The notes beneath the pieces were generated by a model. That model ran no database searches, had not been told where the DNA came from, and worked only from the letters and a program-made list of their open reading frames with translations. A program made the position numbers and the translations under genes. A stretch of 64,000 nucleotides of DNA from Methanomassiliicoccales archaeon. GTDB lineage: Archaea; Thermoplasmatota; Thermoplasmata; Methanomassiliicoccales; UBA472. Shown here piece by piece: positions 17,417 to 30,591 of the stretch; the first letter of the stretch is position 1, and each line of letters begins with the position of its first letter. The stretch lies in NCBI GenBank assembly GCA_016926075.1, contig JAFGPG010000069.1, positions 10,313 to 74,312 on the forward strand, in the 5' to 3' direction.

Positions 17417-18405
17417 CAGCTCGCCCCCCGACTGGCCACGATGTACTCCTGCATCTTGGAGTAGGCCTTCCCGCTGTCCAAGGTCCTCTCGGCCAGGGAA
17501 AGGCCGGAGGCCACATCCCTGCTCCTTCCGAAGATGTATAGGGCGCAGGCGCTGTTCAGCAGGACCATGTCCCGGCGACGGTCCCGACGTCCCCGCAGCA
17601 GCTCGTAGCAGCAACGAGCGGAGGCCTGCGGGGTGAGCTCCCCCACCGCTTCGGGAGCGCAGCGGTCCAGGCCGAGATCCTCGGGGACCATCTCGTACCG
17701 TTCGACGCTCCCGTCCCTCATCTCGGCCACGGACGTGCTGCCGCACAGGGACACCTCGTCCATGCCCGGCTGGCCATGCACCAGCATGGCCCGGTCAACC
17801 CCCAGGGCATCCAGCACCGGTGGGATGGTCCCCAGCAATCGCGGCTCGCATACCCCCATCAAATGCCGGCGCGGTCCCAGCACCGGGTTCATCAACGGCC
17901 CCATGACATTGAATATTGTGCGCCTGGGCACCATCTTGCGAGCCTTGGCCACCTGGCGCATGGCCGGATGAAAGTTGGGAGCGAAGAAGAAGGCGTAACC
18001 GATCCCGTCCAGCATCTCAGCGCAACGCTGGGGTCCGGGGGAGATGTCCGCGCCGATCGCCTCCAGCAGGTCCGCGCTACCGCACTTGCCCTGTGAGGAA
18101 CGGTTGCCGTGCTTGGCCACCGGGACCCCGGCCGCGGCCACGATGAAGGAGCTGATGGTGCTGACGTTGAGGGTGCGCACCTTGGCACCGCCGGTGCCGC
18201 AGAGGTCCATGACCACTTGATGGACGGTAGGTACACGCACGCTCTGTCCGTAGAAGGCGTAGGTCATGCCCAGCAGCTCCTCCGCGCTCTCCCCCCTCTC
18301 TCCCAGCTCCATGAGGCGGTCGGCGATGCCCCGGTCGGAAAGGCGGCCCTCCAGCATATCGCAGGCCAGGCGATGCGCCTGGTCCACAAGCTCGGCCTCG
18401 CTCAT
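17416..18405 (-). CDS. trpD: anthranilate phosphoribosyltransferase
   Basis: 329 aa with CGTGGAKVRTLNVST and KHGNRSSQGKCGSADLLEA. Confidence 0.92.
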   Translation of the reverse strand: MSEAELVDQAHRLACDMLEGRLSDRGIADRLMELGERGESAEELLGMTYAFYGQSVRVPTVHQVVMDLCGTGGAKVRTLNVSTISSFIVAAAGVPVAKHGNRSSQGKCGSADLLEAIGADISPGPQRCAEMLDGIGYAFFFAPNFHPAMRQVAKARKMVPRRTIFNVMGPLMNPVLGPRRHLMGVCEPRLLGTIPPVLDALGVDRAMLVHGQPGMDEVSLCGSTSVAEMRDGSVERYEMVPEDLGLDRCAPEAVGELTPQASARCCYELLRGRRDRRRDMVLLNSACALYIFGRSRDVASGLSLAERTLDSGKAYSKMQEYIVASRGAS

Positions 18406-18995
18406 GAGCCCCCCTCCAGAGAGCGCACGAAGTTGTTCATCAAGTCCTGCCCCCGCTCAGTGAGAACCGATTCGGGATGGAACTGCAGCCCCTCTATGGG
18501 GTATGCTCGATGGCGCAGACCCATCACTGTGCCGTCCTCGCTGCGCGCGGTGACCTCCAGCTCGGGAGGGAGTCCCTCCTCCCGTACGCACAGGGAATGG
18601 TAACGCCCCACGACCAGCGGGGAGGGAAGTCCGCTGAAGACCCCCTTGCCGTCATGCGTCACGCTGGACACCTTCCCGTGACGGGGGCACGCCGACCTCA
18701 CCACCTTCCCCCCATAGGCCTGGGCCACCCCCTGATGCCCCAGGCAGATCGCCAGGGTGGGGATGGACCTGGAGAGCGTGCTCAGCACCTCTATGCACAC
18801 CCCGAAGTCCTCGGGATTACCCGGGTGCCCCGGTCCGGGGGAGATGACGATACCCTGGTAACGCCCATCGACGTCCCCGATCGTCAGCTGGTCGTTCCTG
18901 ACCACCACCGGCTCCGCACCCGCCGCGGCCAGGGAATGAGCCAGGTTGTAGACGAATGAGTCGTAGTTGTCGATGAGCAGCACCCGGGGCCTCAT
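18402..18995 (-). CDS. trpG: anthranilate synthase component II (glutamine amidotransferase)
   Basis: Last 197 codons of track ORF 18402..20312. ATG 18995 overlaps the trpE stop (ATGA). MRPRVLLIDNYDSF, catalytic ICLGHQ, FHPES. Confidence 0.92.
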   Translation of the reverse strand: MRPRVLLIDNYDSFVYNLAHSLAAAGAEPVVVRNDQLTIGDVDGRYQGIVISPGPGHPGNPEDFGVCIEVLSTLSRSIPTLAICLGHQGVAQAYGGKVVRSACPRHGKVSSVTHDGKGVFSGLPSPLVVGRYHSLCVREEGLPPELEVTARSEDGTVMGLRHRAYPIEGLQFHPESVLTERGQDLMNNFVRSLEGGS

Positions 18996-20296
18996 CGCCC
19001 GCCCTCCTCGCACATCTGGAGGGAGCGGTGCACCGCCCCCAGCTTGCCCTGGCATTCCAGATATTCCCTTTCCGGCACTGAGTCCATGACGATGCCCGCA
19101 CCGGCCTGCAGGAAGATGCGATCGCCGTCCACGAAGGCGGAACGGATGGTGATCGCCGTGTCCAGGTCCCCCTGGTCGGAGATGTAGCCCACCGCCCCGG
19201 CGTACGGCCCCCTTCCCCGGGACTCCAGGGACTTGATGAGGCGCATGGCCCGGTGCTTGGGCGCCCCGCTGACCGTCCCCGCCGGGAATACCGCGGCCAG
19301 GGCGTCCAGGGCATCGCGGTCCGCCCGCAGCACCCCCCGCACCCGGGACACCAGGTGCTGCACGTGACTGTACTCCTCCACCCGCATCAGGTCGGCCACC
19401 TCCACCGTGCCGTAATCGCACACCTTGCCCAGGTCGTTGCGGGCCAAATCCACCAACATGATGTGCTCCGCCCGCTCCTTCTCGTCCGCCAGCATCTCCC
19501 GGCGGTTGCTGCGGCGTTCCAGGAGGTCGGAGCCTAGGGGCCTCGTGCCGGCTATGGGGTAGGTGATCGCCTCCCTCCCGCGCACCGTGACCAGGGTCTC
19601 CGGGCTGGAACCCAGCACCTTGCGCTTCCCGAAGTCCAGGTAGAACATGTAGGGGGAAGGGTTGACCTTCCTCAGGCGCAGGTAGAGCTGGAAGGGGTCG
19701 CCCTCGAAGCGGTGCTCCTGGTAACCGGACAGCACCACCTGGAAGGCCTCCCCGTCCAATATCCGGCCCTTGATGTCGTCCACCCCCCGCTCGTACTCCT
19801 CCCTGCCGGTGCCGGAAACCCTTTCCAGCAGGTGGAAGTCGTCCACCCGTCCCTCCTCCTCGAGGGATGAGAGACCATCTTCTCCCTCGGGGTGGAAATG
19901 GTACACCTTGAAGGCCGAGTGGTCGTAGATGAGGCCTCGGTCGTAGAGACCCAGCTCGTAGGCGGGGAATCCCCCGTCGCTCAGGTGCAGGTCCCTCTCC
20001 ACTGAATTGACCAGGTGATAGGAGAAGTATCCGACCAACCCGCCCATGAAGGGGAAGGGGGTCGCCTGCCCGTTCCTCTCCCGCATGGTCTCGCGGATGG
20101 TGTCCAACCCTTCCTCCCCGCGCAGAATGGACCTGGGGGAGGCGCCCAGGAATGAATAGGCAACCGTGCGGGAGGAGCCCTCCGCGCTCTCCAGCAGGAA
20201 GGAGGCTCCCGTCCCCTGGCGCAGCCGGGCGTAGGCCTCGGCCGGGGACAGGCGCAGGTCCACCTCCTCGTAGACCAACTTCGGTACATCTTGCAT
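18992..20296 (-). CDS. trpE: anthranilate synthase component I
   Basis: 434 aa, chorismate-binding family (...FQVVLS...GAGIVMDSVPEREYLE). Confidence 0.92.
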   Translation of the reverse strand: MQDVPKLVYEEVDLRLSPAEAYARLRQGTGASFLLESAEGSSRTVAYSFLGASPRSILRGEEGLDTIRETMRERNGQATPFPFMGGLVGYFSYHLVNSVERDLHLSDGGFPAYELGLYDRGLIYDHSAFKVYHFHPEGEDGLSSLEEEGRVDDFHLLERVSGTGREEYERGVDDIKGRILDGEAFQVVLSGYQEHRFEGDPFQLYLRLRKVNPSPYMFYLDFGKRKVLGSSPETLVTVRGREAITYPIAGTRPLGSDLLERRSNRREMLADEKERAEHIMLVDLARNDLGKVCDYGTVEVADLMRVEEYSHVQHLVSRVRGVLRADRDALDALAAVFPAGTVSGAPKHRAMRLIKSLESRGRGPYAGAVGYISDQGDLDTAITIRSAFVDGDRIFLQAGAGIVMDSVPEREYLECQGKLGAVHRSLQMCEEGGR

Positions 20297-20424
20297 GATA
20301 AAACGTGGACATTAACGAATATATATAAACATTATTGATTTTTATAATACAATAATATATTCATATCACGCTGTATCACGGGTGAAAGATTTACATGAGC
20401 GGCGGCAATGAGAGGGCGAGATAC
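20297..20424. promoter_or_regulatory. AT-rich divergent promoter region (trp operon / flavoprotein-cobO operon)
   Basis: About 130 bp AT-rich island with TATA-like elements (atatatataaac, tttttataatac) between divergent first genes. Confidence 0.6.
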
Positions 20425-21572: not shown

Positions 21573-21737
21573 ATGGCCGAGAAGGACCCCGAGAAGAACA
21601 AGAAGGAATGCACCTTTTGCGAAGCCTACGACTTTAAGGGCACTTGGACATGCGAATGCGACGCCATCAACCTCTCGCAGGATACCAAGTGCTGGAGATG
21701 CGGACGGTCGCGCTTCGAGGTGGAAGGAAAGGCCTAG
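21573..21737 (+). CDS. 54-aa zinc-finger mini-protein (RanBP2-like / zinc-ribbon)
   Basis: Below the track size cutoff. My translation: MAEKDPEKNKKECTFCEAYDFKGTWTCECDAINLSQDTKCWRCGRSRFEVEGKA. Contains three Cys pairs (CxxC, CxC, CxxC); codon usage resembles neighbouring genes. Confidence 0.6.
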   Translation: MAEKDPEKNKKECTFCEAYDFKGTWTCECDAINLSQDTKCWRCGRSRFEVEGKA

Positions 21738-22000
21738 AACCTCTCTGCCAGCTCCTTCATGTCCAGACGTAGCTGGATGACGTCCCCCACCACCCCGATG
21801 AGGTCGGTGGACACGTTGATGATGACCGGTTTGAACATCTTCTTCTTGATACCCAGCTCGCTGGCCGGTTCCCTAGGCACATCGACCATGATGCTCAGGA
21901 CGGTCCATTTGGTGGGGTCCAGCTTGGCTCCAGCCAACTCCCCCAGCTCGCGGCCGTCCTTGCTGATGACCCTCTTTCTCTCCACGCTGCTCAGTTCCAT
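21734..22000 (-). CDS. PRC-barrel domain protein
   Basis: MELSSVERKRVISKDGRELGELAGAKLDPTKWTVLSIMV... is typical of small archaeal PRC-barrel proteins. ATG 22000 has GGGAGGGG about 8 nt upstream (track start 22021). Confidence 0.75.
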   Translation of the reverse strand: MELSSVERKRVISKDGRELGELAGAKLDPTKWTVLSIMVDVPREPASELGIKKKMFKPVIINVSTDLIGVVGDVIQLRLDMKELAERF

Positions 22001-22048
22001 GTCGGAAGACCCCTCCCGCAATTGTTCAGGGCGGAGATAAGCGTTTGC

Positions 22049-22346: not shown

Positions 22347-24206
22347 ATGGAAGAGGCCTTGCAGGAACAGTACCGCTCGAAGCTGCTCAGCGCCGAGGAG
22401 GCGGTGCTGAGGATCTCCCCCGGGAGCACGATCTTCCTGGGAACGGCCTGCGGGGAACCGCAGGCTTTAGTGAAGGCCTTGTTGGAGAAATCCTATGCCA
22501 TGGTGGACAGCGAGCTCATCCAGGCCATCTCGCTCGGCCTCACTTTCTATGCCGAGGAGAGGTTCATGGACCAGTTCCGCCTCAACGCCTTCTTCATCGG
22601 GCCCAACGTGCGCAACGCGGTCAACGAAGGACGCGCGGACTACACCCCGGTCAACCTCTCGGACATCGAACGCCTCTTCTCCAGTGGTCTCAAGCCAGTG
22701 GACGTGGCCCTCATACAGGTCTCCCCTCCGGACCAGGAAGGGTACTGCAACCTGGGGGTGTCGGTGGACATCACCATGTCCGCGGCCAGGCACGCCGACC
22801 TGGTCATCGCGGAGGTCAACCCTAACATGCCCCGGCTGGGCGGGGACAGCCGGCTGCATATCAGGGAGATAGATCATCTGGTGGAGAACGACCAGCCCCT
22901 GCTGGAGTTCACCGGGGAGGACGAGTCGTCCCGGGTGGTCCCCCGCATCGGCAAGAACGTGGCCGAGCTGGTGCCGGACGGAGCGACCATACAGGTGGGT
23001 TACGGAAACGTGCCGGACACCATTCTCACCAGCCTCTCACAAAAGAAGGACCTGGGGGTGCACACCGAGATGTTCTCTGATGGCATCATCGAACTGGTGG
23101 AGAAGGGCGTCATCAACGGCAGGAAGAAGACCCACCATCTCGGCAAGGTGGTGGCCTCCTTCTGCATGGGCAGCAAGCGCCTCTTCGATTTCATCGACGG
23201 CCATGAGATGTTCGAGATGTATCCATCCTCCTATACCAACGACCCCTGCAACATCTCCCGGAACGATGGCATGGTGGCCATCAACTCCGCTCTGGAGGTG
23301 GACCTCACAGGCCAGGTGTGCACCGACCAGATCGGGCAGCGCTTCTATTCGGGCATCGGGGGGCAGGCGGACTTCATGCGCGGGGCGGCCCGTTCCAAGG
23401 GCGGCAAGGCCATCATCGCTTTGCCCTCAACAGCCCATCATCATACCATCTCCCGGATCGTCCCCACCCTATCCTCCGGGGGCGGGGTGACCACCACCAG
23501 GGGGGACGTGCAGTTCGTGGTCACCGAGTACGGGGTGGCCGACCTGCGCGGGAAGAGCATCATGGAAAGGACCCTGGCCCTCATCGGCATCGCCCATCCC
23601 CGCTTCCGCTCCGAGCTGCTCATGCACGCCAAGTCCCTGCACTTCGTCTACCAGGACCAGCTGGAGGCCGGCTACGTGGGCGTGTACCCCGAGAAATGGG
23701 AGTTCGTGCGGGTGGTGGCGGACCACGAGCTGTTCTTCCGTCCGGCCAAGCCCACCGACGAGGGGATGCTCAAGGACATGTTCTACTCCCTGTCCTGGGA
23801 CACGGTGTACAACCGGTTCATGGGGCTCAAGCGCAGTATGCCGCACCGCGAGCTGCAGCGCATCGTGAACATCGACTACGACACACGCATGACCATATGC
23901 GGCTTCAACAACGAGGACGGTGTGTGGTCCATGGTTGCCTTCGCCATGTACGATATGGACAAGCAGAGCAACACCGCCGAGATCTCCTTCGCGGTCAGTG
24001 ACGAGTGGCAGAACAAGCGCATCGGCACCCTTCTCATGGAGACCATGATCGAGATCGCCCGCGAGCGCAAGATCAGGGCCTTCACCGCCGAGCTGCTGAC
24101 CGAGAACATGCGCATGCTGGACCTCTTCTACCGTACCGGGCTCAAGGTGGAGACCAGGCTGGTGGGGGACACCTATCTGGTGACCATCGACCTATGGACC
24201 AAGTGA
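22347..24206 (+). CDS. fusion protein: acetyl-CoA hydrolase/transferase-family domain + C-terminal Pat-type GNAT acetyltransferase domain
   Basis: 619 aa from ATG 22347 (track TTG 22344). The first ~450 aa resemble 4-hydroxybutyrate/acetyl-CoA transferase (...GIGGQADFMRGA...). The last ~170 aa read FRPAKPTDEGML...YNRFMG...IVNIDYDTRMTI...VSDEWQNKRIGTLLME..., matching Pat-like GNAT. Confidence 0.8.
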   Translation: MEEALQEQYRSKLLSAEEAVLRISPGSTIFLGTACGEPQALVKALLEKSYAMVDSELIQAISLGLTFYAEERFMDQFRLNAFFIGPNVRNAVNEGRADYTPVNLSDIERLFSSGLKPVDVALIQVSPPDQEGYCNLGVSVDITMSAARHADLVIAEVNPNMPRLGGDSRLHIREIDHLVENDQPLLEFTGEDESSRVVPRIGKNVAELVPDGATIQVGYGNVPDTILTSLSQKKDLGVHTEMFSDGIIELVEKGVINGRKKTHHLGKVVASFCMGSKRLFDFIDGHEMFEMYPSSYTNDPCNISRNDGMVAINSALEVDLTGQVCTDQIGQRFYSGIGGQADFMRGAARSKGGKAIIALPSTAHHHTISRIVPTLSSGGGVTTTRGDVQFVVTEYGVADLRGKSIMERTLALIGIAHPRFRSELLMHAKSLHFVYQDQLEAGYVGVYPEKWEFVRVVADHELFFRPAKPTDEGMLKDMFYSLSWDTVYNRFMGLKRSMPHRELQRIVNIDYDTRMTICGFNNEDGVWSMVAFAMYDMDKQSNTAEISFAVSDEWQNKRIGTLLMETMIEIARERKIRAFTAELLTENMRMLDLFYRTGLKVETRLVGDTYLVTIDLWTK

Positions 24207-24914
24207 ACCGCAGTCCGGGCACTCCGGGTTCCTGACGAAACGCACCTCGCTGACCTGGTCGTGGCGCAGGTCCAGGAAGAGCGCGTGCCCGTCGGCCTCC
24301 CCCATATCCAGCAACAGCTTGATGGCCTCCATGGCCTGCAGGGCACCGATGACCCCGGCCGCGGCGCCGATGACCGGCACAGGCCTTCTGCTGCTCACCA
24401 GGTCGGGGAAGGCGCAGCGCAGGCATGGCCCCCCTGGCACCAAGGTTAGCACGTGCCCGCCCATGCCCTCCACCGCCCCGTGCACCAGAGGGATGCGCCT
24501 AGCGAGGCAATGCCGGTTGAGGGCGTAGCGGCCCTGAGGGTTGTCCAGGCAGTCCAGGGCCAGGTCGGCGTCCTCCAGTATGTAGGAGTTATCATCCTCC
24601 AACAGCATGGGCAGGGCCTCCACACGCACCTCGGAGTTGAGCGCCTTCAGCTTGATGCGGGCCGATTCCACCTTGAAGCGGGGCAACAGGGCATCCTCCT
24701 CGTAATGCAGCACCTGACGGTTGAGGTTGGAGGCCTCCACCCTCCCGTCGTCAATGAGGATGAGCTTGCCCACCCCCGCCGCGGCCAGGTACTGGCAGGC
24801 CGGGGAGCCCAACCCCCCAATGCCCACCACGGCCACCGTGGACCGGCAGAGGCGTTCCTGGGCCGAGACCCCGAAACCCTCCATGGAAATCTGACGCGCG
24901 TAACGGTCCCTCAT
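24192..24914 (-). CDS. ThiF/MoeB/UbaA-type E1-like adenylyltransferase
   Basis: MRDRYARQISMEGFG, Rossmann VVGIGGLGSPACQYLAAAGVG and C-terminal CPDC. ATG 24914 preferred over track start 24977. Confidence 0.82.
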   Translation of the reverse strand: MRDRYARQISMEGFGVSAQERLCRSTVAVVGIGGLGSPACQYLAAAGVGKLILIDDGRVEASNLNRQVLHYEEDALLPRFKVESARIKLKALNSEVRVEALPMLLEDDNSYILEDADLALDCLDNPQGRYALNRHCLARRIPLVHGAVEGMGGHVLTLVPGGPCLRCAFPDLVSSRRPVPVIGAAAGVIGALQAMEAIKLLLDMGEADGHALFLDLRHDQVSEVRFVRNPECPDCGSLGP

Positions 24915-24975
24915 GGCGGGCCTAGATGACCCTATGCCGTTATAATCGATTCCCAGGGCTCCCCGCGCACGCCGC

Positions 24976-25941
24976 ATGTTTATTATTGGTCTCGATAATC
25001 CCCCTTTTCAGGGGGGACGCGAGGTGGAGACCGTCATCGAGGTCAAGGGCCTGGTCAAGGAATACGGAAAGCTGAGGGCGGTGGACAACATCGACCTGGA
25101 GGTCAAGGCCGGGGAGGTATACTCCATACTGGGCCCCAACGGGGCGGGGAAGACCACCTCCGTGGAGATCATGGAGTGCCTGAGGATCAAGACCTCCGGG
25201 GAGGTGCGCATCCTGGGTTACGACATAGACAAGGAACAGAGGGAGATACGCAAACGCATCGGCGTGCTTCCGCAGTCCTTCAATGCCTTCGAGTATCTGA
25301 CGGTGAAGGAGAACATCGACTATTTCGGCGACCTGTTCGACCGTCGTCTGGGCGCGGACGAGCTCATCGAGGCCGTGCAGCTGCAGGAAAAGCGCAACGT
25401 ATGGTTCATGAACCTTTCCGGAGGACTGAAGCAGAGGGTGGGGGTGGCCATCTCCATGGTCAACGACCCCGAGCTCATCTTCCTGGACGAGCCGACCACG
25501 GAACTGGACCCCAAGGCCCGCCGGGAGGTGTGGGAGGTCATACGCGACCTCAAGTCCAAGAACAAGACGGTCATCCTGACCACGCACTACATGGAGGAGG
25601 CCGAGATCCTCTCCGACCGGGTGGCCATCATGGACGACGGGCGCTTCATCGCCATGGGCACCCCGCGTGAGATCATCGACCGGCACGGCTCGGGCAGCAC
25701 CTGCGTGGTCAAGGCGGCCAACGATGCCGCCCTTCAGGCGGTGAAGGGGGCGGGCATGGACAGCGAGAACAAGGACGGCGACCTCTGGGTGAGGCTGGAG
25801 AACAAGGGGAGCCTGGCACGGCTGGTCAACCTGCTCTCGGCCGGAGAGGTCTCCTACGACGAGATGCTCATCAAGGGGAGCACCCTGGAGGACGTGTTCC
25901 TCAAGCTCACGGGGAAGAAGCTCGCGGAGGCGGAGGCATGA
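24976..25941 (+). CDS. ABC transporter ATP-binding protein (ABC-2 exporter type)
   Basis: Walker A GPNGAGKTT, signature LSGGLKQR, Walker B IFLDEPT. Alternative start GTG 25024 has a GGGGGGA SD upstream. Confidence 0.9.
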   Translation: MFIIGLDNPPFQGGREVETVIEVKGLVKEYGKLRAVDNIDLEVKAGEVYSILGPNGAGKTTSVEIMECLRIKTSGEVRILGYDIDKEQREIRKRIGVLPQSFNAFEYLTVKENIDYFGDLFDRRLGADELIEAVQLQEKRNVWFMNLSGGLKQRVGVAISMVNDPELIFLDEPTTELDPKARREVWEVIRDLKSKNKTVILTTHYMEEAEILSDRVAIMDDGRFIAMGTPREIIDRHGSGSTCVVKAANDAALQAVKGAGMDSENKDGDLWVRLENKGSLARLVNLLSAGEVSYDEMLIKGSTLEDVFLKLTGKKLAEAEA

Positions 25942-27035
25942 GGTTCAAGCACGTCCTGGTGGACCTCAAGGGGCAGGCCAAGTCCTTCTTCCGGGTCAAG
26001 AGCAACCTGTTCTGGACGCTGGCGTTCCCGCTCTTCCTCATCCTGGTGTTCGGGGCCATCTTCTCCAACATGGGGTCGGGAACGGTGATACTCAACGTGC
26101 AGAACCTGGACGGGGGTCCCGGTTCCACGCTCTTCCTGCAGTCCCTCGACGAGACCGGGGCCATCGAGCTCAGGTTCATCGATCCCCAGGCGGACCTGGA
26201 GCAACACATAAAGGACAACTCCCTGGCTCACGTGATGGTCCTGCCCCCGAACTTTTCGGAGGCATTCGTCCCGAACAGCACCGCCACGGCGCAGGTGGAA
26301 CTAAGGCTGGACGAGACCGTGTCCACCTCGTCCATAGTCCGCAACATCGTCAACGCGGTCGTGAACAACTATAACCTGGCCATGTCCGACGGGCGCGAGT
26401 ATCTCGAACTGGAGGTCGGCAGCATCATCCAGAAGCGCTTCACCTTCCTGGACTTCTTCGTACCCGGGGTCGTCGGCCTGACGGTCATGACCACCTGCGT
26501 GTTCTCCATGCAAGGCACCATATCGCGCTTCCGAGCGGCGGGGATATTCCGCAAGCTGGCAACCACGCCGATGACCCCCTTTGAATGGCTGCTTTCCCGC
26601 ATGATCTGGTTCCTGTTCATCTCCTTCCTAACCCTGGCCGTGGTCCTGGTGTTCGGCATACTGGTCTTCGGCATGAGCATGACCCTCAACGCCCCGGCCC
26701 TGCTCATGGTGATCGCCGCAAGCGCCATGTTCTCGGCACTGGGCATGATAATCGCCCGCTTCGTCAAGAACGAGGAGACGGCGAACATGGCCTCCAACGC
26801 CATCATCTTCCCCATGATGTTCCTCTCCGGGACCTTCTTCGAGCTGGAGATGATGCCCGGTTACATGCAGGACATCGCCTCTGTACTCCCCTTGACCTAC
26901 GTGAGCCAGGGGCTCAGGGACGCCATGGTGTTCAATAACTTGGACGGGGCCTACCTCAACCTTTTGGTGGTGGCCGTGATCGCCGTCATCTTCGTGGCCG
27001 TGGCCGTGCTGGTCACCAAGTGGGAGGAGGATTGA
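25938..27035 (+). CDS. ABC-2 type transporter permease
   Basis: 365 aa with an N-terminal TM helix, a large extracytoplasmic loop and a C-terminal 5-TM bundle. ATGA overlap with the ATPase gene. Confidence 0.85.
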   Translation: MRFKHVLVDLKGQAKSFFRVKSNLFWTLAFPLFLILVFGAIFSNMGSGTVILNVQNLDGGPGSTLFLQSLDETGAIELRFIDPQADLEQHIKDNSLAHVMVLPPNFSEAFVPNSTATAQVELRLDETVSTSSIVRNIVNAVVNNYNLAMSDGREYLELEVGSIIQKRFTFLDFFVPGVVGLTVMTTCVFSMQGTISRFRAAGIFRKLATTPMTPFEWLLSRMIWFLFISFLTLAVVLVFGILVFGMSMTLNAPALLMVIAASAMFSALGMIIARFVKNEETANMASNAIIFPMMFLSGTFFELEMMPGYMQDIASVLPLTYVSQGLRDAMVFNNLDGAYLNLLVVAVIAVIFVAVAVLVTKWEED

Positions 27036-27040
27036 AAAAA

Positions 27041-27068
27041 AGGCGCACGGTTAAATAACCCGGTGCGT
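27041..27068 (+). terminator. possible hairpin terminator after the ABC operon
   Basis: ggCGCACGGttaaataaCCcGGTGCGtc imperfect stem-loop 6 nt after the stop, followed by tctttcc. Confidence 0.35.
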
Positions 27069-27084
27069 CTTTCCAGGCGATCAC

Positions 27085-28575
27085 GTGCTCGGCAGAAAAT
27101 CATTCATCCTGTTCCTGTCGAAGATGCTCTCCGCAGCCCTGGCCTACATAGGGCTTTACTTCATCACCAGGTACCTGGGCGCCGAGATCTACGGTACAGT
27201 GGCCTGGACCATGGCCTTCGTGGCCACCTTCAACGCCGTGGCCGACCTAGGCTTCGGAAGCGCCCATGTCAAGCGCATATCGGAAGGATGCGATCCGAAC
27301 GAATGCATAAGCACCTATGCAGTGGTAAAACTGGCCCTGACCGGGATCATGGTGCTTTTCACCCTTTCTTCGGTCCTCATCTGGACCTCCGTGCTGGGAT
27401 ACACCCTGGAGGACACAAGTACGGAACTGATCATTCTCTTTGTACTGTACCAGGTGCTCTATGACGTTTCGACCATAGCTACCACCACCTTCCAGGCTAA
27501 GATGGAAATGGCCAAGATGCCCCTGGTGACATTGATCGACCCTTTTGTCCGGGTGCCCCTGGTCATATTCGTCTCTATAAATTATTTGGGAGTAATGGAA
27601 CTAGCATACGCTTACGTCATTGGGGCGTTGTTCGTTGCCACGTTCGGTACATTCCTACTTTTACGAGGCAAGGTGCGATGGCAACGTCCTGTGCTCTTCC
27701 GCTCCTATCTCACATTCGCCCTTCCCTTAATGGTCATCACCATCATCAGCACGATGAGCGGCAATGTGGATAAGCTTCTGATCGGATTCTTCTGGACCTC
27801 CACGGACGTCGGTCTCTACACCGCCCCGGCGGTGTTCCTGGGAGTTATGGCCACCATCAGCACGGCGGTCTCCACCCTGACCTTCCCTTCCTTTTCCAAA
27901 CTACACGCCGAGGGTAACATAGCCGAGATAAGGAAGATGTCCATGCAGGCAGAGCGGTACATCACTATGATCGGTTTGCCGATCACGTTGCTGATTATCA
28001 TATTCCCATACGAGGTCTGTCTGGTCCTTTTAGGTCCACGTTTCATTGACTCCGGAGACGTCATCGCCATCATGGCGGTGACCAATCTGCTGGTCATGAT
28101 CAATGCCGTGCACTGCTCGCAGATATTGGCCGTCGGCCGTCCCGATATTTCGGCCCGCATCACCATCTTCACGGTGGCATTGAATATTATCATGATGTTG
28201 CTATTCATACCAAACTTCGGTCTAGGGCTCTCGTTCGTAGGGGCGGCCTTGGCACTGATGATCGGTAACATAGTAGGGTTCATCATTGTCCGTTACGTGG
28301 TCTGGAGGCTCACAGGCACATCCCCGTACAAACGTCTTTCATTGCAGCTAGTGGCAGGTCTGTTTGCGGCGCTCACGATGTTCGCACTGGGCATGTTCAT
28401 AAGCATAGACCGGTGGTACACATTGATGCTGTTCGGACTGTTGGCTTTCGGAGTGTACTTAGGTGTGCTCGCTATAATGAGGGAGTTCACCCGGGCCGAC
28501 CTGGCCTACTTCCTTGAACTGGTCAACGTCAAGAAGATGCTGGTGTACATCCGCGACGAGCTAAGGACCAAGTGA
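27085..28575 (+). CDS. polysaccharide/oligosaccharide flippase (MOP/Wzx-like) membrane protein
   Basis: 496 aa from GTG 27085, about 14 TM helices. N-terminus LGRKSFILFLSKMLSAALAYIGLYFITRYLG is typical of the polysaccharide biosynthesis protein family. Visibly more AT-rich than its neighbours. Confidence 0.75.
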   Translation: MLGRKSFILFLSKMLSAALAYIGLYFITRYLGAEIYGTVAWTMAFVATFNAVADLGFGSAHVKRISEGCDPNECISTYAVVKLALTGIMVLFTLSSVLIWTSVLGYTLEDTSTELIILFVLYQVLYDVSTIATTTFQAKMEMAKMPLVTLIDPFVRVPLVIFVSINYLGVMELAYAYVIGALFVATFGTFLLLRGKVRWQRPVLFRSYLTFALPLMVITIISTMSGNVDKLLIGFFWTSTDVGLYTAPAVFLGVMATISTAVSTLTFPSFSKLHAEGNIAEIRKMSMQAERYITMIGLPITLLIIIFPYEVCLVLLGPRFIDSGDVIAIMAVTNLLVMINAVHCSQILAVGRPDISARITIFTVALNIIMMLLFIPNFGLGLSFVGAALALMIGNIVGFIIVRYVVWRLTGTSPYKRLSLQLVAGLFAALTMFALGMFISIDRWYTLMLFGLLAFGVYLGVLAIMREFTRADLAYFLELVNVKKMLVYIRDELRTK

Positions 28576-28608: not shown

Positions 28609-30591
28609 TCATCTCTTGGCCAAGGCCTGACTTCCCTGGATGAGGATGTCCAGTATGCCGGGATCGGCCAGGGTGGTGGTGTCGCCCAGGTCCTCCGCGC
28701 TGCCGGTGGCCACCTTCCTCAGCAGGCGGCGCATGATCTTGCCGCTGCGTGTCTTGGGCATGCCAGGGCAGAACTGGATGACCTCCGGGGTGGCGATGGG
28801 CCCCACCTCCCGGCGCACGTGGGACACCAGCTCCTTGCGCAACTGCTCGCTCTCCTCCACCCCCGTCTTGAGGGTGACGAAGGCGTAGATGGCCTCGCCC
28901 TTGATGGGGTGCGGGACGGGCACTATGGCCGCCTCGGCCACGCTGTGATGGGAGACCAGGGCGCTCTCCACCTCCGCCGCTCCGATGCGGTGCCCGGAGA
29001 CCTTGATGACATCGTCCACCCGGCCCATGATCCAGAAGTAGCCGTCCTCGTCCATGCGGGCCGAGTCCCCGGTGAAGTACTTGTTCGGGAATCGCGTCCA
29101 GTAGAGCTCCCTGAACCGGTCATGCTCCCCCCACACCGTGCGCATGATGGACGGCCACGGCCTGTTGATGCACAGGTAGCCGCCCTCGTTGACCTTGGCC
29201 GTGGTGCCATCGTCCTTGACCACCTCCGGGACCACCCCGAAGAAGGGCAGCGTGGCGGAACCGGGCTTGGTGGTGACCGCCCCGGGTATGGGGGTGATGA
29301 GAATGGAGCCGGTCTCCGTCTGCCACCAGGTGTCCATGATGGGGCAGCGCTCGTTACCGATGTACTTATGGTACCACATCCAGGCCTCGGGGTTGATCGG
29401 CTCGCCCACCGTGCCCAGTATGCGCAGCGAGGACAGGTCCCTGCCCTGCGGCCACTTCTCCCCCTCCCTCATCAGGGAGCGTATGGCCGTGGGGGCGGTG
29501 TAGAAGATGTTCACCTGGAACTTCTCCACGATGTTCCAGAAGCGGTCCACCTGCGGGTAGGTGGGGATGCCCTCGAACATGAGGGTCGTGGCACCGGCGC
29601 AGAGCGGTCCGTAGATGATGTAGCTGTGCCCGGTGACCCAGCCGATGTCCGCGGTGCACCAATAGGTGTCGTCCTCGTGGTAGTCGAAGATGTACTTGAA
29701 GGAGACGCAGGTGCTGAGCAGGTATCCGGCGGTGGTATGCACCACCCCCTTGGGCTTCCCGGTGGACCCGGAGGTGTACAGGATGTATAAGGGGTCCTCG
29801 GAATCGCACCACACTGGCTCGCAGGAGCGGTCCGCCTTGGCCATCTCCTCGTGCCACCATACGTCCCTACCGGGCTCCATGGGGCATTCCGCCCCCGCCC
29901 GCTTGACCACCAGCACCTTCTCCACGATGGCCCCCTTCTCCACGGCAATGTCCGCGTTGCTCTTCAAAGGCACGAACTTGCTGCCGCGATGGTTGCCATC
30001 GGCGGTGATGAGCAGCTTGGACTCGCAGTCCGCGATGCGGTCCTTGAGCGATTCGGAGCTGAAGCCCCCGAACACGATGCTGTGCACCGCCCCGATCCTG
30101 GTGCAGGCCAGCATGGCGATCGCGAGCTCCGGTATCATGGGTAGGTAAATGGAGACCCGGTCGCCCTTCTGCACCCCCAGGGAACGGAGCACGTTGGCGC
30201 AGCGGCAGACCTCGGTGTGCAGCTGCTGATAGGTGTAGGTCCTCACATCGTCCTCGCCCTCTCCCTGCCAGATGATGGCGGCCTTGTTCTTGCGGCCGTT
30301 CTCCAGGTGACGGTCCAGACAGTTGTAGGATACGTTGAGCTTACCGCCCTCGAACCATTTGATGATGACGTTCTCCTTGTCCCAGCTGTGCAATCGATGC
30401 CACCTCTCGAACCAGTGCAGCTCCTCGGTGGCCATCCTGGACCAGAACCCTTCCGGGTCATCGATGGACTCCTTGTACATCTTCTGGTACTGTTCCAGGC
30501 TCTTGATGTGGGCCTTCTCGCTCAATTCCTTGGGGGGTGGGAAGCGCCGCGCTTCCTCCATCACGCTCTCGATGGTCTCTCCGTCGCTCAT
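28609..30591 (-). CDS. acs: acetyl-CoA synthetase (AMP-forming)
   Basis: 660 aa with [11 protein letters not shown] and the C-terminal acetylation-site motif [11 protein letters not shown]. Confidence 0.95.

Follow-up and report, generated by a model that had tools for sequence, protein, structure and literature searches.

A Pat-type acetyltransferase domain joined to a family-I CoA-transferase in Methanomassiliicoccales: a predicted regulator of acetyl-CoA synthetase

Introduction

What is the role of a gene in which a CoA-transferase-like domain is joined to a GNAT acetyltransferase, and is it connected with the acetyl-CoA synthetase (Acs, of the AMP-forming kind) encoded close by? The question is raised by a 64,000-nucleotide stretch of contig JAFGPG010000069.1 (assembly GCA_016926075.1) from a Methanomassiliicoccales archaeon, referred to below as the window, which carries such a fusion gene. 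Among the cases in which acylation regulates prokaryotic metabolism, the control of Acs by lysine acetylation is the best studied. The writers known for it (Pat/PatZ, SlPatA, MtPat, AcuA and a few others) come mostly from cultivated Proteobacteria, Actinobacteria and Firmicutes, and for archaea there is almost no description of multi-domain Pat-type enzymes or of Acs regulation. A first-pass annotation of the window had proposed that the fusion is an analogue of Pat in which the acyl-CoA-sensing module has been exchanged, and had left open whether the transferase half is catalytic or only a sensor. The analysis presented here leads us to regard the protein as a Pat-like lysine acetyltransferase whose regulatory domain has been replaced by an apparently active family-I CoA-transferase, a reading that we consider reasonably probable as a whole.

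The fusion gene and its domains

The open reading frame (ORF) of the fusion begins at TTG 22344 or ATG 22347 on the forward strand and ends at 24206; translation from the ATG yields 619 aa, which is also the length of the closest homologues (P0001, at 97% identity, has 619 aa). Three Pfam domains were matched above their gathering scores, namely AcetylCoA_hydro at residues 6-183 (E 2.4e-29, 103 bits), AcetylCoA_hyd_C at residues 275-427 (E 4.1e-66, 222 bits) and Acetyltransf_1 at residues 508-598 (E 4.8e-10), a combination that is far beyond chance. The peptides on which the first-pass annotation had based its junction of an acetyl-CoA hydrolase/transferase with a GNAT are present in the translation. 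Full-length homologues cover a range of 97-51% identity, the best of them being encoded by Methanomassiliicoccales metagenome-assembled genomes (MAGs), and they bear generic database names such as 'acyl-CoA hydrolase/GNAT superfamily N-acetyltransferase' and 'GNAT family N-acetyltransferase'. That the fusion arose through misassembly or a frameshift was ruled out, since the same architecture (query residues ~6-616) was found in 80 of 80 loci from other species. A curated family assignment was tried for both halves and had to be abandoned, as every NCBIfam model scored below its cutoff.

The AlphaFold2 (AF2) model of the full-length protein had a mean predicted local distance difference test score (pLDDT) of 88 and a predicted template modelling score (pTM) of 0.83. 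No solved structure spanning both domains was retrieved by Foldseek with this model (best template modelling score normalised to the query, TMq, 0.67). CoA_binding, Succ_CoA_lig and ATP-grasp_5 were absent from the protein according to Pfam; it thus has no domain resembling an NDP-forming acyl-CoA synthetase and is therefore not a type I or type II Pat. A CoA-transferase is found in that place instead, so that the proposal of a Pat analogue with a swapped sensing module is supported in silico.

The GNAT half belongs with Pat enzymes

When residues 441-619 were compared with the sequences in the PDB, the eight best matches were all Pat-type lysine acetyltransferases (KATs), comprising the SlPatA GNAT (4nxy/4u5y), MsPat, PatZ and MtPat at E values of 1e-9 to 1e-8, and the next GNAT followed only at 1e-3. 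Structure gave the same picture. With an AF2 model of the GNAT alone (pLDDT 93), the top eight Foldseek matches were again all Pat-type, among them 4u5y, which contains the SlPatA GNAT with the C-terminal domain of Acs (E 3e-17, TMq 0.84), 9it0 (PatZ, TMq 0.87), 4avb (MtPat, TMq 0.80) and 4nxy (within TM 0.80-0.87); generic and small-molecule GNATs appeared from rank 9 onwards, at TM ≤0.67. The Pat-type identity suggested in the first-pass annotation was thus recovered in eight of eight best matches by both routes. The GNAT alone was also compared with 1.84 billion representatives, where 1448 clusters were matched at E≤1e-10; the best matches were proteins of ~620 aa (the fusion), of 880-967 aa with the domain at either terminus (type I/II lengths) and of ~340 aa (type III length), besides short proteins. 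Judged by sequence, the GNAT falls among the type I, II and III Pat architectures.

Before the GNAT core the fusion carries the Pat N-terminal extension YP...FRP...Y-RF, which reads YPEKWE...FRPAKPTDE...YNRF as against YPAHWE or YPHQLE...FRP...YYRY in the known enzymes; Y447-P448 is invariant in 76 homologues and is aligned with the YP of SlPatA (YPAHWE) and of PatZ (YPHQLE). The predicted general base, E545 in AEISF, corresponds in the alignment to the Glu in AEVAF of SlPatA and MsPat (E234 in the latter) and in AEFAV of PatZ, a residue known as the catalytic Glu of Pat enzymes (SlPatA E123, PatZ E809; PMC12184503). Over an alignment of 191 full-length fusion proteins, on which the conservation figures given here and below are based, position 545 is occupied by E in 180 and by D in the other 11, while A544 and N587 do not vary. 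The acetyl-CoA pyrophosphate-binding loop, canonically Q/R-x-x-G-x-G/A (PMC8556138), reads Q-x-K/R-G-I-G in most homologues; its fourth residue (position 558) is G in 162 of the 191 and R in 27, the latter being the clade of the window.

These matches bear on the possibility that the GNAT is a small-molecule N-acetyltransferase, acylating a polyamine or an amino acid with CoA thioesters supplied by the transferase half, and that the HDAC-family genes found near the fusion in other lineages (see below) encode acetyl-polyamine amidohydrolases. GNATs are promiscuous, the Pfam and NCBIfam matches of this half are generic or below cutoff, and the HDAC family does include acetylpolyamine amidohydrolases (PMC11532494). 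Against this, the domain groups with Pat-type KATs both by sequence and by structure, with a clear gap to the small-molecule GNATs, and it possesses the Pat-specific N-terminal extension; moreover, the HDAC neighbours are nearest to protein deacetylases, and an association with Acs would be left unexplained. Placement with small-molecule N-acetyltransferases, which the first-pass annotation had named as an outcome that would speak against it, was not seen by sequence, by structure or in the scan of 1.84 billion representatives. On the PDB, Foldseek and HDAC-neighbour matches, a small-molecule identity is rated very unlikely.

The transferase half looks catalytically competent

In the PDB sequence search, residues 6-433 matched the solved 4-hydroxybutyrate CoA-transferases at E values of 1e-129 to 1e-104, and RipA at ~1e-83. 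The full-length model was superposed by Foldseek on 2oas/3gk7 over the whole two-lobed alpha/beta fold of ~430 aa (TM-score normalised to the target, TMt, 0.92-0.93; root-mean-square deviation 1.9 Å; 36-45% identity). The N-terminal half is accordingly nearest, by sequence, to 4-hydroxybutyrate/butyryl-CoA transferases. Its predicted nucleophile, E241 in the motif HTEM, is aligned with residue 238 of the AbfT chain 3gk7 (HSEM) and with E249 of RipA, the catalytic residue on which the CoA thioester is built in the ping-pong mechanism of family I (PMC3180442). A check of this Glu had been suggested in the first-pass annotation; the position holds E in 179 of the fusion homologues and D in the remaining 12, and is thus acidic in 191 of 191. 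In the GXGGQxDF motif, G336, G339 and D342 show no variation, whereas Q340 is kept in 166 of 191. In class I CoA-transferases, GXGGQ is part of the active site. Because the catalytic Glu and the GXGG are kept across the fusion homologues, the transferase half looks competent rather than like a degenerate sensor, which is our answer to the question left open at the start.

The proteins with Asp for Glu at the nucleophile (HTDM) are encoded at loci L071, L072, L073 and L076, which are Desulfobacterota-type and include the isolate Desulfoferrobacter suflitae, and by P0050, P0051, P0053-P0055, P0066, P0070 and P0074, of which P0066, P0070 and P0074 are from Halobacteriota MAGs. Exchange of Glu for Asp in class I CoA-transferases can yield acyl-CoA hydrolases, and a structure of RipA E249D (4n8l) was among the Foldseek matches. 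By analogy, these lineages may possess a hydrolase-GNAT variant.

An intact transferase site would also allow a different use of the fusion, in which the transferase would turn a free acid, with acetyl-CoA, into a non-acetyl acyl-CoA (for example propionyl-, butyryl-, 4-hydroxybutyryl- or lactyl-CoA), and the GNAT would use this directly to write lysine acylations that report which acids are available. Conservation of both active sites in the 191 homologues would suit such a donor-generating acyltransferase, as would the nearness of the transferase to 4-hydroxybutyrate/butyryl-CoA enzymes, the recurrence of a monocarboxylate transporter gene near the fusion (counted below) and the pTM of the full-length model, according to which the two domains seem to be fixed relative to each other. 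A separate CoA-transferase has reportedly been discussed in connection with lysine lactylation by YiaC of E. coli. The conserved partners of the fusion, Acs and an ADP-forming acetate ligase, point instead to acetate and acetyl-CoA metabolism, and the known Pat enzymes use acetyl-CoA, some of them also propionyl-CoA, without a fused donor-forming domain. We consider this explanation improbable.

Acs and its link to the fusion

The proposed substrate of the Pat-like enzyme, the Acs encoded in the window, scored 1018.6 bits against TIGR02188 (cutoff 724.95) and contains ACAS_N, AMP-binding and AMP-binding_C (Pfam). It retains the lysine motif, as the first-pass annotation had noted: the predicted acetylation site is K618 in PKTRSGK. 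The homologous lysine (SeAcs K609, BsAcsA K549) is the known target of Pat and AcuA (PMC12184503; PMC11532494), and its acetylation by all three of Pat, AcuA and MtPat is described in PMC12184503, PMC11255334 and PMC11910552.

The fusion and acs are convergent, with 4402 bp and four genes between them. In an 84%-identical Methanomassiliicoccales relative (L083) the gene order is exactly that of the window, all four intervening genes included. In two more distant relatives the four genes are absent, and the fusion lies directly next to acs in convergent orientation, at a distance of 241 bp (L082, where an HTH_20 gene follows and, further on, EamA) or of 17 bp (L085). The simplest reading is that the adjacency is ancestral in the group and that the lineage of the window gained a block of four genes of ~4.4 kb. 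The proximity pointed out in the first-pass annotation is in this respect a stronger link than distance alone would suggest, the more so as acs recurs beside the fusion in other phyla.

Distribution and gene neighbourhoods in other lineages

When one genome of each GTDB species was scanned for a sequence pattern, at least 600 stretches were obtained, all confirmed by tblastn, and the best-scoring 80 loci were kept. The full-length fusion is thus present in at least 600 species, mostly bacteria, from many bacterial and archaeal phyla. The architecture, whose distribution in archaea the first-pass annotation had suggested examining, is neither rare nor archaeal-specific. Bacterial carriers among the 80 loci are Planctomycetota, Desulfobacterota, Verrucomicrobiota, Anaerolineae, Acidobacteriota, Myxococcota, Spirochaetota, Calditrichia, Elusimicrobia and others, and archaeal carriers are Thermoplasmata, Bathyarchaeia, Thorarchaeota, Methanolliviera and Methanosaeta. 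Named species are represented by the isolate Desulfoferrobacter suflitae DRH4 and by MAGs assigned to Chthonomonas calidirosea and Desulfobulbus propionicus.

The fusion was also seen in a MAG of Methanosaeta sp. NSP1 (L053) and in Ca. Methanolliviera (L045); no acs was found on the 7.2-kb contig of the former. In Methanosaeta/Methanothrix, acetate enters aceticlastic methanogenesis by way of AMP-forming Acs.

Neighbouring genes were counted by tblastn over 85 loci with 1.24 Mb of flanking DNA, the GTDB loci among them being the 80 best-scoring of the at least 600, many with short flanks. A true Acs was found within 10 kb of the fusion in 15 of the 85 loci, from many phyla. These enzymes are 55-66% identical to the Acs of the window (12 GTDB loci measured), and the lysine motif is identical in 10 of 10 full-length Acs neighbours obtained from other phyla by ORF clustering. 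Fifteen genes in 1.24 Mb correspond to about one per 82 kb. By our own, uncomputed estimate, a genome of several Mb would be expected to have roughly one or two acs genes, or about one per 2-3 Mb; relative to this estimated background, Acs near the fusion is enriched by an order of magnitude or more.

Other partners recurred as well. An ADP-forming acyl-CoA synthetase of ~700 aa (CoA_binding_2, Succ_CoA_lig, Ligase_CoA_2 and ATP-grasp_5) was found near the fusion in 37 of 85 loci, an HDAC-family gene in 16 by tblastn and in 22 by ORF clustering, a SfMCT-type monocarboxylate transporter in 12 and an AcuB-like CBS protein in 6, Desulfobulbales L059, L075, L078 and L079 included; at least one of ligase, HDAC and Acs was present in 46 of 85. 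The HDAC gene often lies 9-17 bp downstream of the fusion in the same operon, and among PDB entries its product is closest to the protein deacetylases HDAC6/8/2 and RPD3. A typical operon has the order ligase-fusion-HDAC with gaps of -19 to +17 bp (L010, L013, L018, L022, L060 and others, from several bacterial phyla), and Acs and the SfMCT-type transporter are often found 2-8 kb from it. No description of this conserved module was found in the literature searched. It was considered whether the ligase neighbour could be a Pat regulatory domain acting in trans. Its phospho-His motif is intact in 30 of 33 cases, and a representative scored 494 bits to the true ADP-forming ligase 8wzu and 311 bits to PatZ; the idea was therefore rejected, and the neighbour is an enzyme partner rather than a detached Pat regulatory domain.

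The frequency of the ligase raises the possibility that the fusion is foremost a metabolic CoA-transferase, which together with the ligase would convert acyl-CoA into acid and ATP by way of acetyl-CoA, the GNAT serving for regulation by auto-acetylation or by acetylation of the ligase and not of Acs. The ligase is the most common neighbour and is often translationally coupled to the fusion (gaps of -19 to +7 bp), it mostly keeps its phospho-His motif and is closer to true ligases than to the regulatory domain of PatZ, and the active site of the transferase appears to be intact. On the other side, the window contains no ADP-forming ligase, the conserved neighbour in Methanomassiliicoccales is Acs, and the GNAT most resembles the SlPatA domain that was crystallised with the C-terminal domain of Acs; to our knowledge, no ADP-forming ligase is a Pat substrate. 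We give this alternative only a small chance of being correct.

Features and other genes of the window

The features discussed are collected in Table 1. The window has a GC content of ~0.62, and its genes are arranged in the order trp operon, FMN reductase, CobA, a small unannotated ORF, the fusion, ThiF (-), ABC ATPase, ABC-2 permease, Polysacc_synt flippase, Acs (-), an HTH_20 regulator (-), EamA (-) and Usp. The 3' end of the ThiF gene overlaps that of the fusion by 15 bp (24192-24206).

The small ORF upstream of the fusion (21734-22021, minus strand, 95 aa) is divergent from it, has a GC content at third codon positions (GC3) of 0.85 and has no Pfam match; unannotated small genes of 67-93 aa occupy the same place in L081, L083 and L084. 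Judging by its position, this ORF could encode a small, conserved partner or regulator. The trp operon is also kept upstream of the fusion in L081 and L084. Within it, a mechanical ORF of 636 aa (18402-20312, minus strand) has a low GC3 overall (0.55), and its GATase domain is confined to the final ~190 residues; the true gene there is probably a short TrpG, the upstream part overlapping a TrpE-like ORF (18992-20296) in another frame.

Table 1. Positions of the fusion gene, its functional elements and associated genes in the window
Feature	Position	Strand	Basis or remark
Fusion gene, CoA-transferase/Pat-type GNAT, 619 aa	22347..24206 (incl. stop codon)	+	ORF, Pfam, homologues, AF2
Family-I CoA-transferase module, residues 6-433	22362..23645	+	Pfam, PDB sequence matches, Foldseek
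E241 codon, predicted CoA-transferase nucleophile (HTEM motif)	23067..23069	+	Alignment to AbfT
GIGGQ (GXGGQ) motif, presumed CoA-transferase active site	23352..23366	+	Alignment of 191 homologues
Tyr-Pro (Y447-P448), start of N-terminal extension before GNAT core	23685..23690	+	Invariant, aligned to SlPatA/PatZ
Pat-type GNAT domain, residues 453-615	23703..24191	+	Acetyltransf_1, PDB matches, AF2, Foldseek
E545 codon, predicted general-base Glu of GNAT (AEISF)	23979..23981	+	Alignment to Pat enzymes
Acetyl-CoA pyrophosphate-binding loop, QNKRIG	24009..24026	+	Canonical Q/R-x-x-G-x-G/A; fourth residue here R
Intervening block: ThiF, ABC ATPase, ABC-2 permease, Polysacc_synt flippase	24192-28575	mixed (ThiF -)	Gene calls, Pfam
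AMP-forming acetyl-CoA synthetase Acs, 660 aa, proposed substrate	28609..30591	-	TIGR02188, Pfam
K618 codon in PKTRSGK of Acs, predicted acetylation site	28738..28740	-	Within the 11-residue motif at nt 28726-28758

Discussion

As a Pat-like lysine acetyltransferase, the fusion probably acetylates Acs and so switches acetate activation off. The C-terminal GNAT would bind acetyl-CoA and acetylate K618 of Acs, thereby blocking adenylation; this site is proposed because of the precedent of Pat, AcuA and MtPat. Such acetylation would stop the ATP-costly activation of acetate when acyl-CoA is plentiful, and an unchecked Acs is described as a drain on ATP in PMC11910552. The N-terminal transferase would bind acyl-CoA and react through E241, presumably by way of the family's characteristic glutamyl-CoA thioester, and would in this way tie the output of the GNAT to the acyl-CoA/carboxylate status of the cell, whether by conformational control, by local interconversion of acyl-CoA and acetyl-CoA, or by both. 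An HDAC, where present, would act as the eraser and remove the acetyl mark. In lineages with the operon partners, the module would prevent a futile cycle between acetate formation by the ADP-forming ligase (acetyl-CoA to acetate and ATP) and acetate activation by AMP-forming Acs (acetate to acetyl-CoA, for which two ATP equivalents are spent). Genome analyses suggest that Methanomassiliicoccales use acetate as a carbon source (PMC7824343), so that in these archaea the enzyme would act at the entry of carbon assimilation.

Several observations weigh against this proposal. In the window itself acs lies on the opposite strand, 4.4 kb away and behind four unrelated genes, and in two of the Methanomassiliicoccales relatives, L081 and L084, there is no acs within 10 kb of the fusion. 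Across the 85 loci the commonest neighbour is the ADP-forming ligase (37, as compared with 15 for Acs), and the ligase or other proteins could be the main target. No deacetylase or ADP-forming ligase was matched in the 64 kb by tblastn with representatives of the conserved neighbours (1e-3), and a regular-expression search for the sirtuin motif GAGIS...GIP-FR was negative there as well; the full module is therefore absent from these 64 kb. The Arg that replaces the fourth-position Gly of the pyrophosphate-binding loop in the clade of the window might alter donor binding. Finally, neither half is an equivalog of the curated models by sequence score: the best GNAT-family match, the NCBIfam model of mycobacterial Pat (NF058543), reached 72 bits against a cutoff of 460, and the butyryl-CoA:acetate CoA-transferase model TIGR03948 reached 302.6 bits against 674.8.

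A comparison with known systems places the fusion close to, yet apart from, each of them. Like the type I enzymes Pat/PatZ (YfiQ) of Salmonella enterica and E. coli, the fusion ends in a Pat-type GNAT that carries the YP...FRP extension, E545 corresponding to PatZ E809, and it also has a large N-terminal domain for CoA-thioester binding; both are tied to an AMP-forming Acs with a PX4GK lysine target, in the case of the fusion by gene neighbourhood. In Pat/PatZ, however, the N-terminal domain is ADP-forming ligase-like and ~700 aa long, whereas in the fusion it is of an unrelated fold, a family-I CoA-transferase of ~430 aa. The regulatory domain of PatZ has lost its catalytic His (H254 to L245; PMC12184503), while the N-terminal domain of the fusion retains its nucleophile. 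The arrangement of the fusion most resembles that of the type III KATs (MtPat/MsPat with cNMP, MaPatB with ACT, MxActC with NADP+), in which a non-ACD N-terminal domain of ~300-450 aa is followed by a Pat-type GNAT, and its own GNAT belongs with the Pat enzymes by sequence and structure. In type III enzymes the N-terminal domain is a sensor of a small ligand, whereas here it has the fold of an enzyme with an intact active site.

The acsA/acuABC genes of Bacillus subtilis offer a parallel in gene content: as at the fusion loci of other lineages, acs is accompanied by genes for a GNAT writer and for an HDAC-type eraser (AcuC), in some cases also by one for a CBS protein (AcuB-like). AcuA differs in being a single-domain GNAT of another subfamily, and the fusion modules usually add the ADP-forming acyl-CoA synthetase; the window has neither an HDAC nor a CBS gene. 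AbfT, RipA of Yersinia and the butyryl-CoA:acetate CoA-transferase share with the N-terminal half the whole-length fold, the catalytic Glu and GXGGQ; they differ as stand-alone proteins of ~430-450 aa that have no GNAT. Published schemes of KAT types I-V list only ACD-like, cAMP, ACT and NADP+ regulatory domains, and a CoA-transferase is absent (PMC11254643, PMC8556138, PMC12184503, PMC6456759). Among archaeal homologues a single-domain GNAT architecture is common, according to a 2025 study (PMC12607858). No description of a CoA-transferase-GNAT fusion was found in the full-text literature searched, many subscription journals being outside its coverage.

The gene of the window is one ordinary member of a large family that has been annotated without being characterised, and it is the family that is the object of interest. 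A bolder proposal, which we put forward only tentatively and regard as rather doubtful, is that the family constitutes a sixth type of prokaryotic protein acyltransferase. In such enzymes an active CoA-transferase would gate or feed lysine acylation, either through its glutamyl-CoA state or through acyl-CoA made from short-chain acids. Together with the ligase, HDAC, Acs and the transporter, they might form an 'acetate switch' module distributed over more than 20 bacterial and archaeal phyla, and they might include the first enzyme to regulate Acs in methanogenic archaea.

Should the Pat-like reading hold, control of Acs would extend to many mostly uncultivated anaerobes, among them Planctomycetota, Desulfobacterota, Verrucomicrobiota, Anaerolineae and Thorarchaeota, and also to the methanogen groups Methanomassiliicoccales and Methanothrix. 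The regulatory domain of these enzymes would then be a live enzyme with a covalent CoA intermediate, so that protein acylation would be coupled to acyl-CoA/carboxylate status in a new manner.

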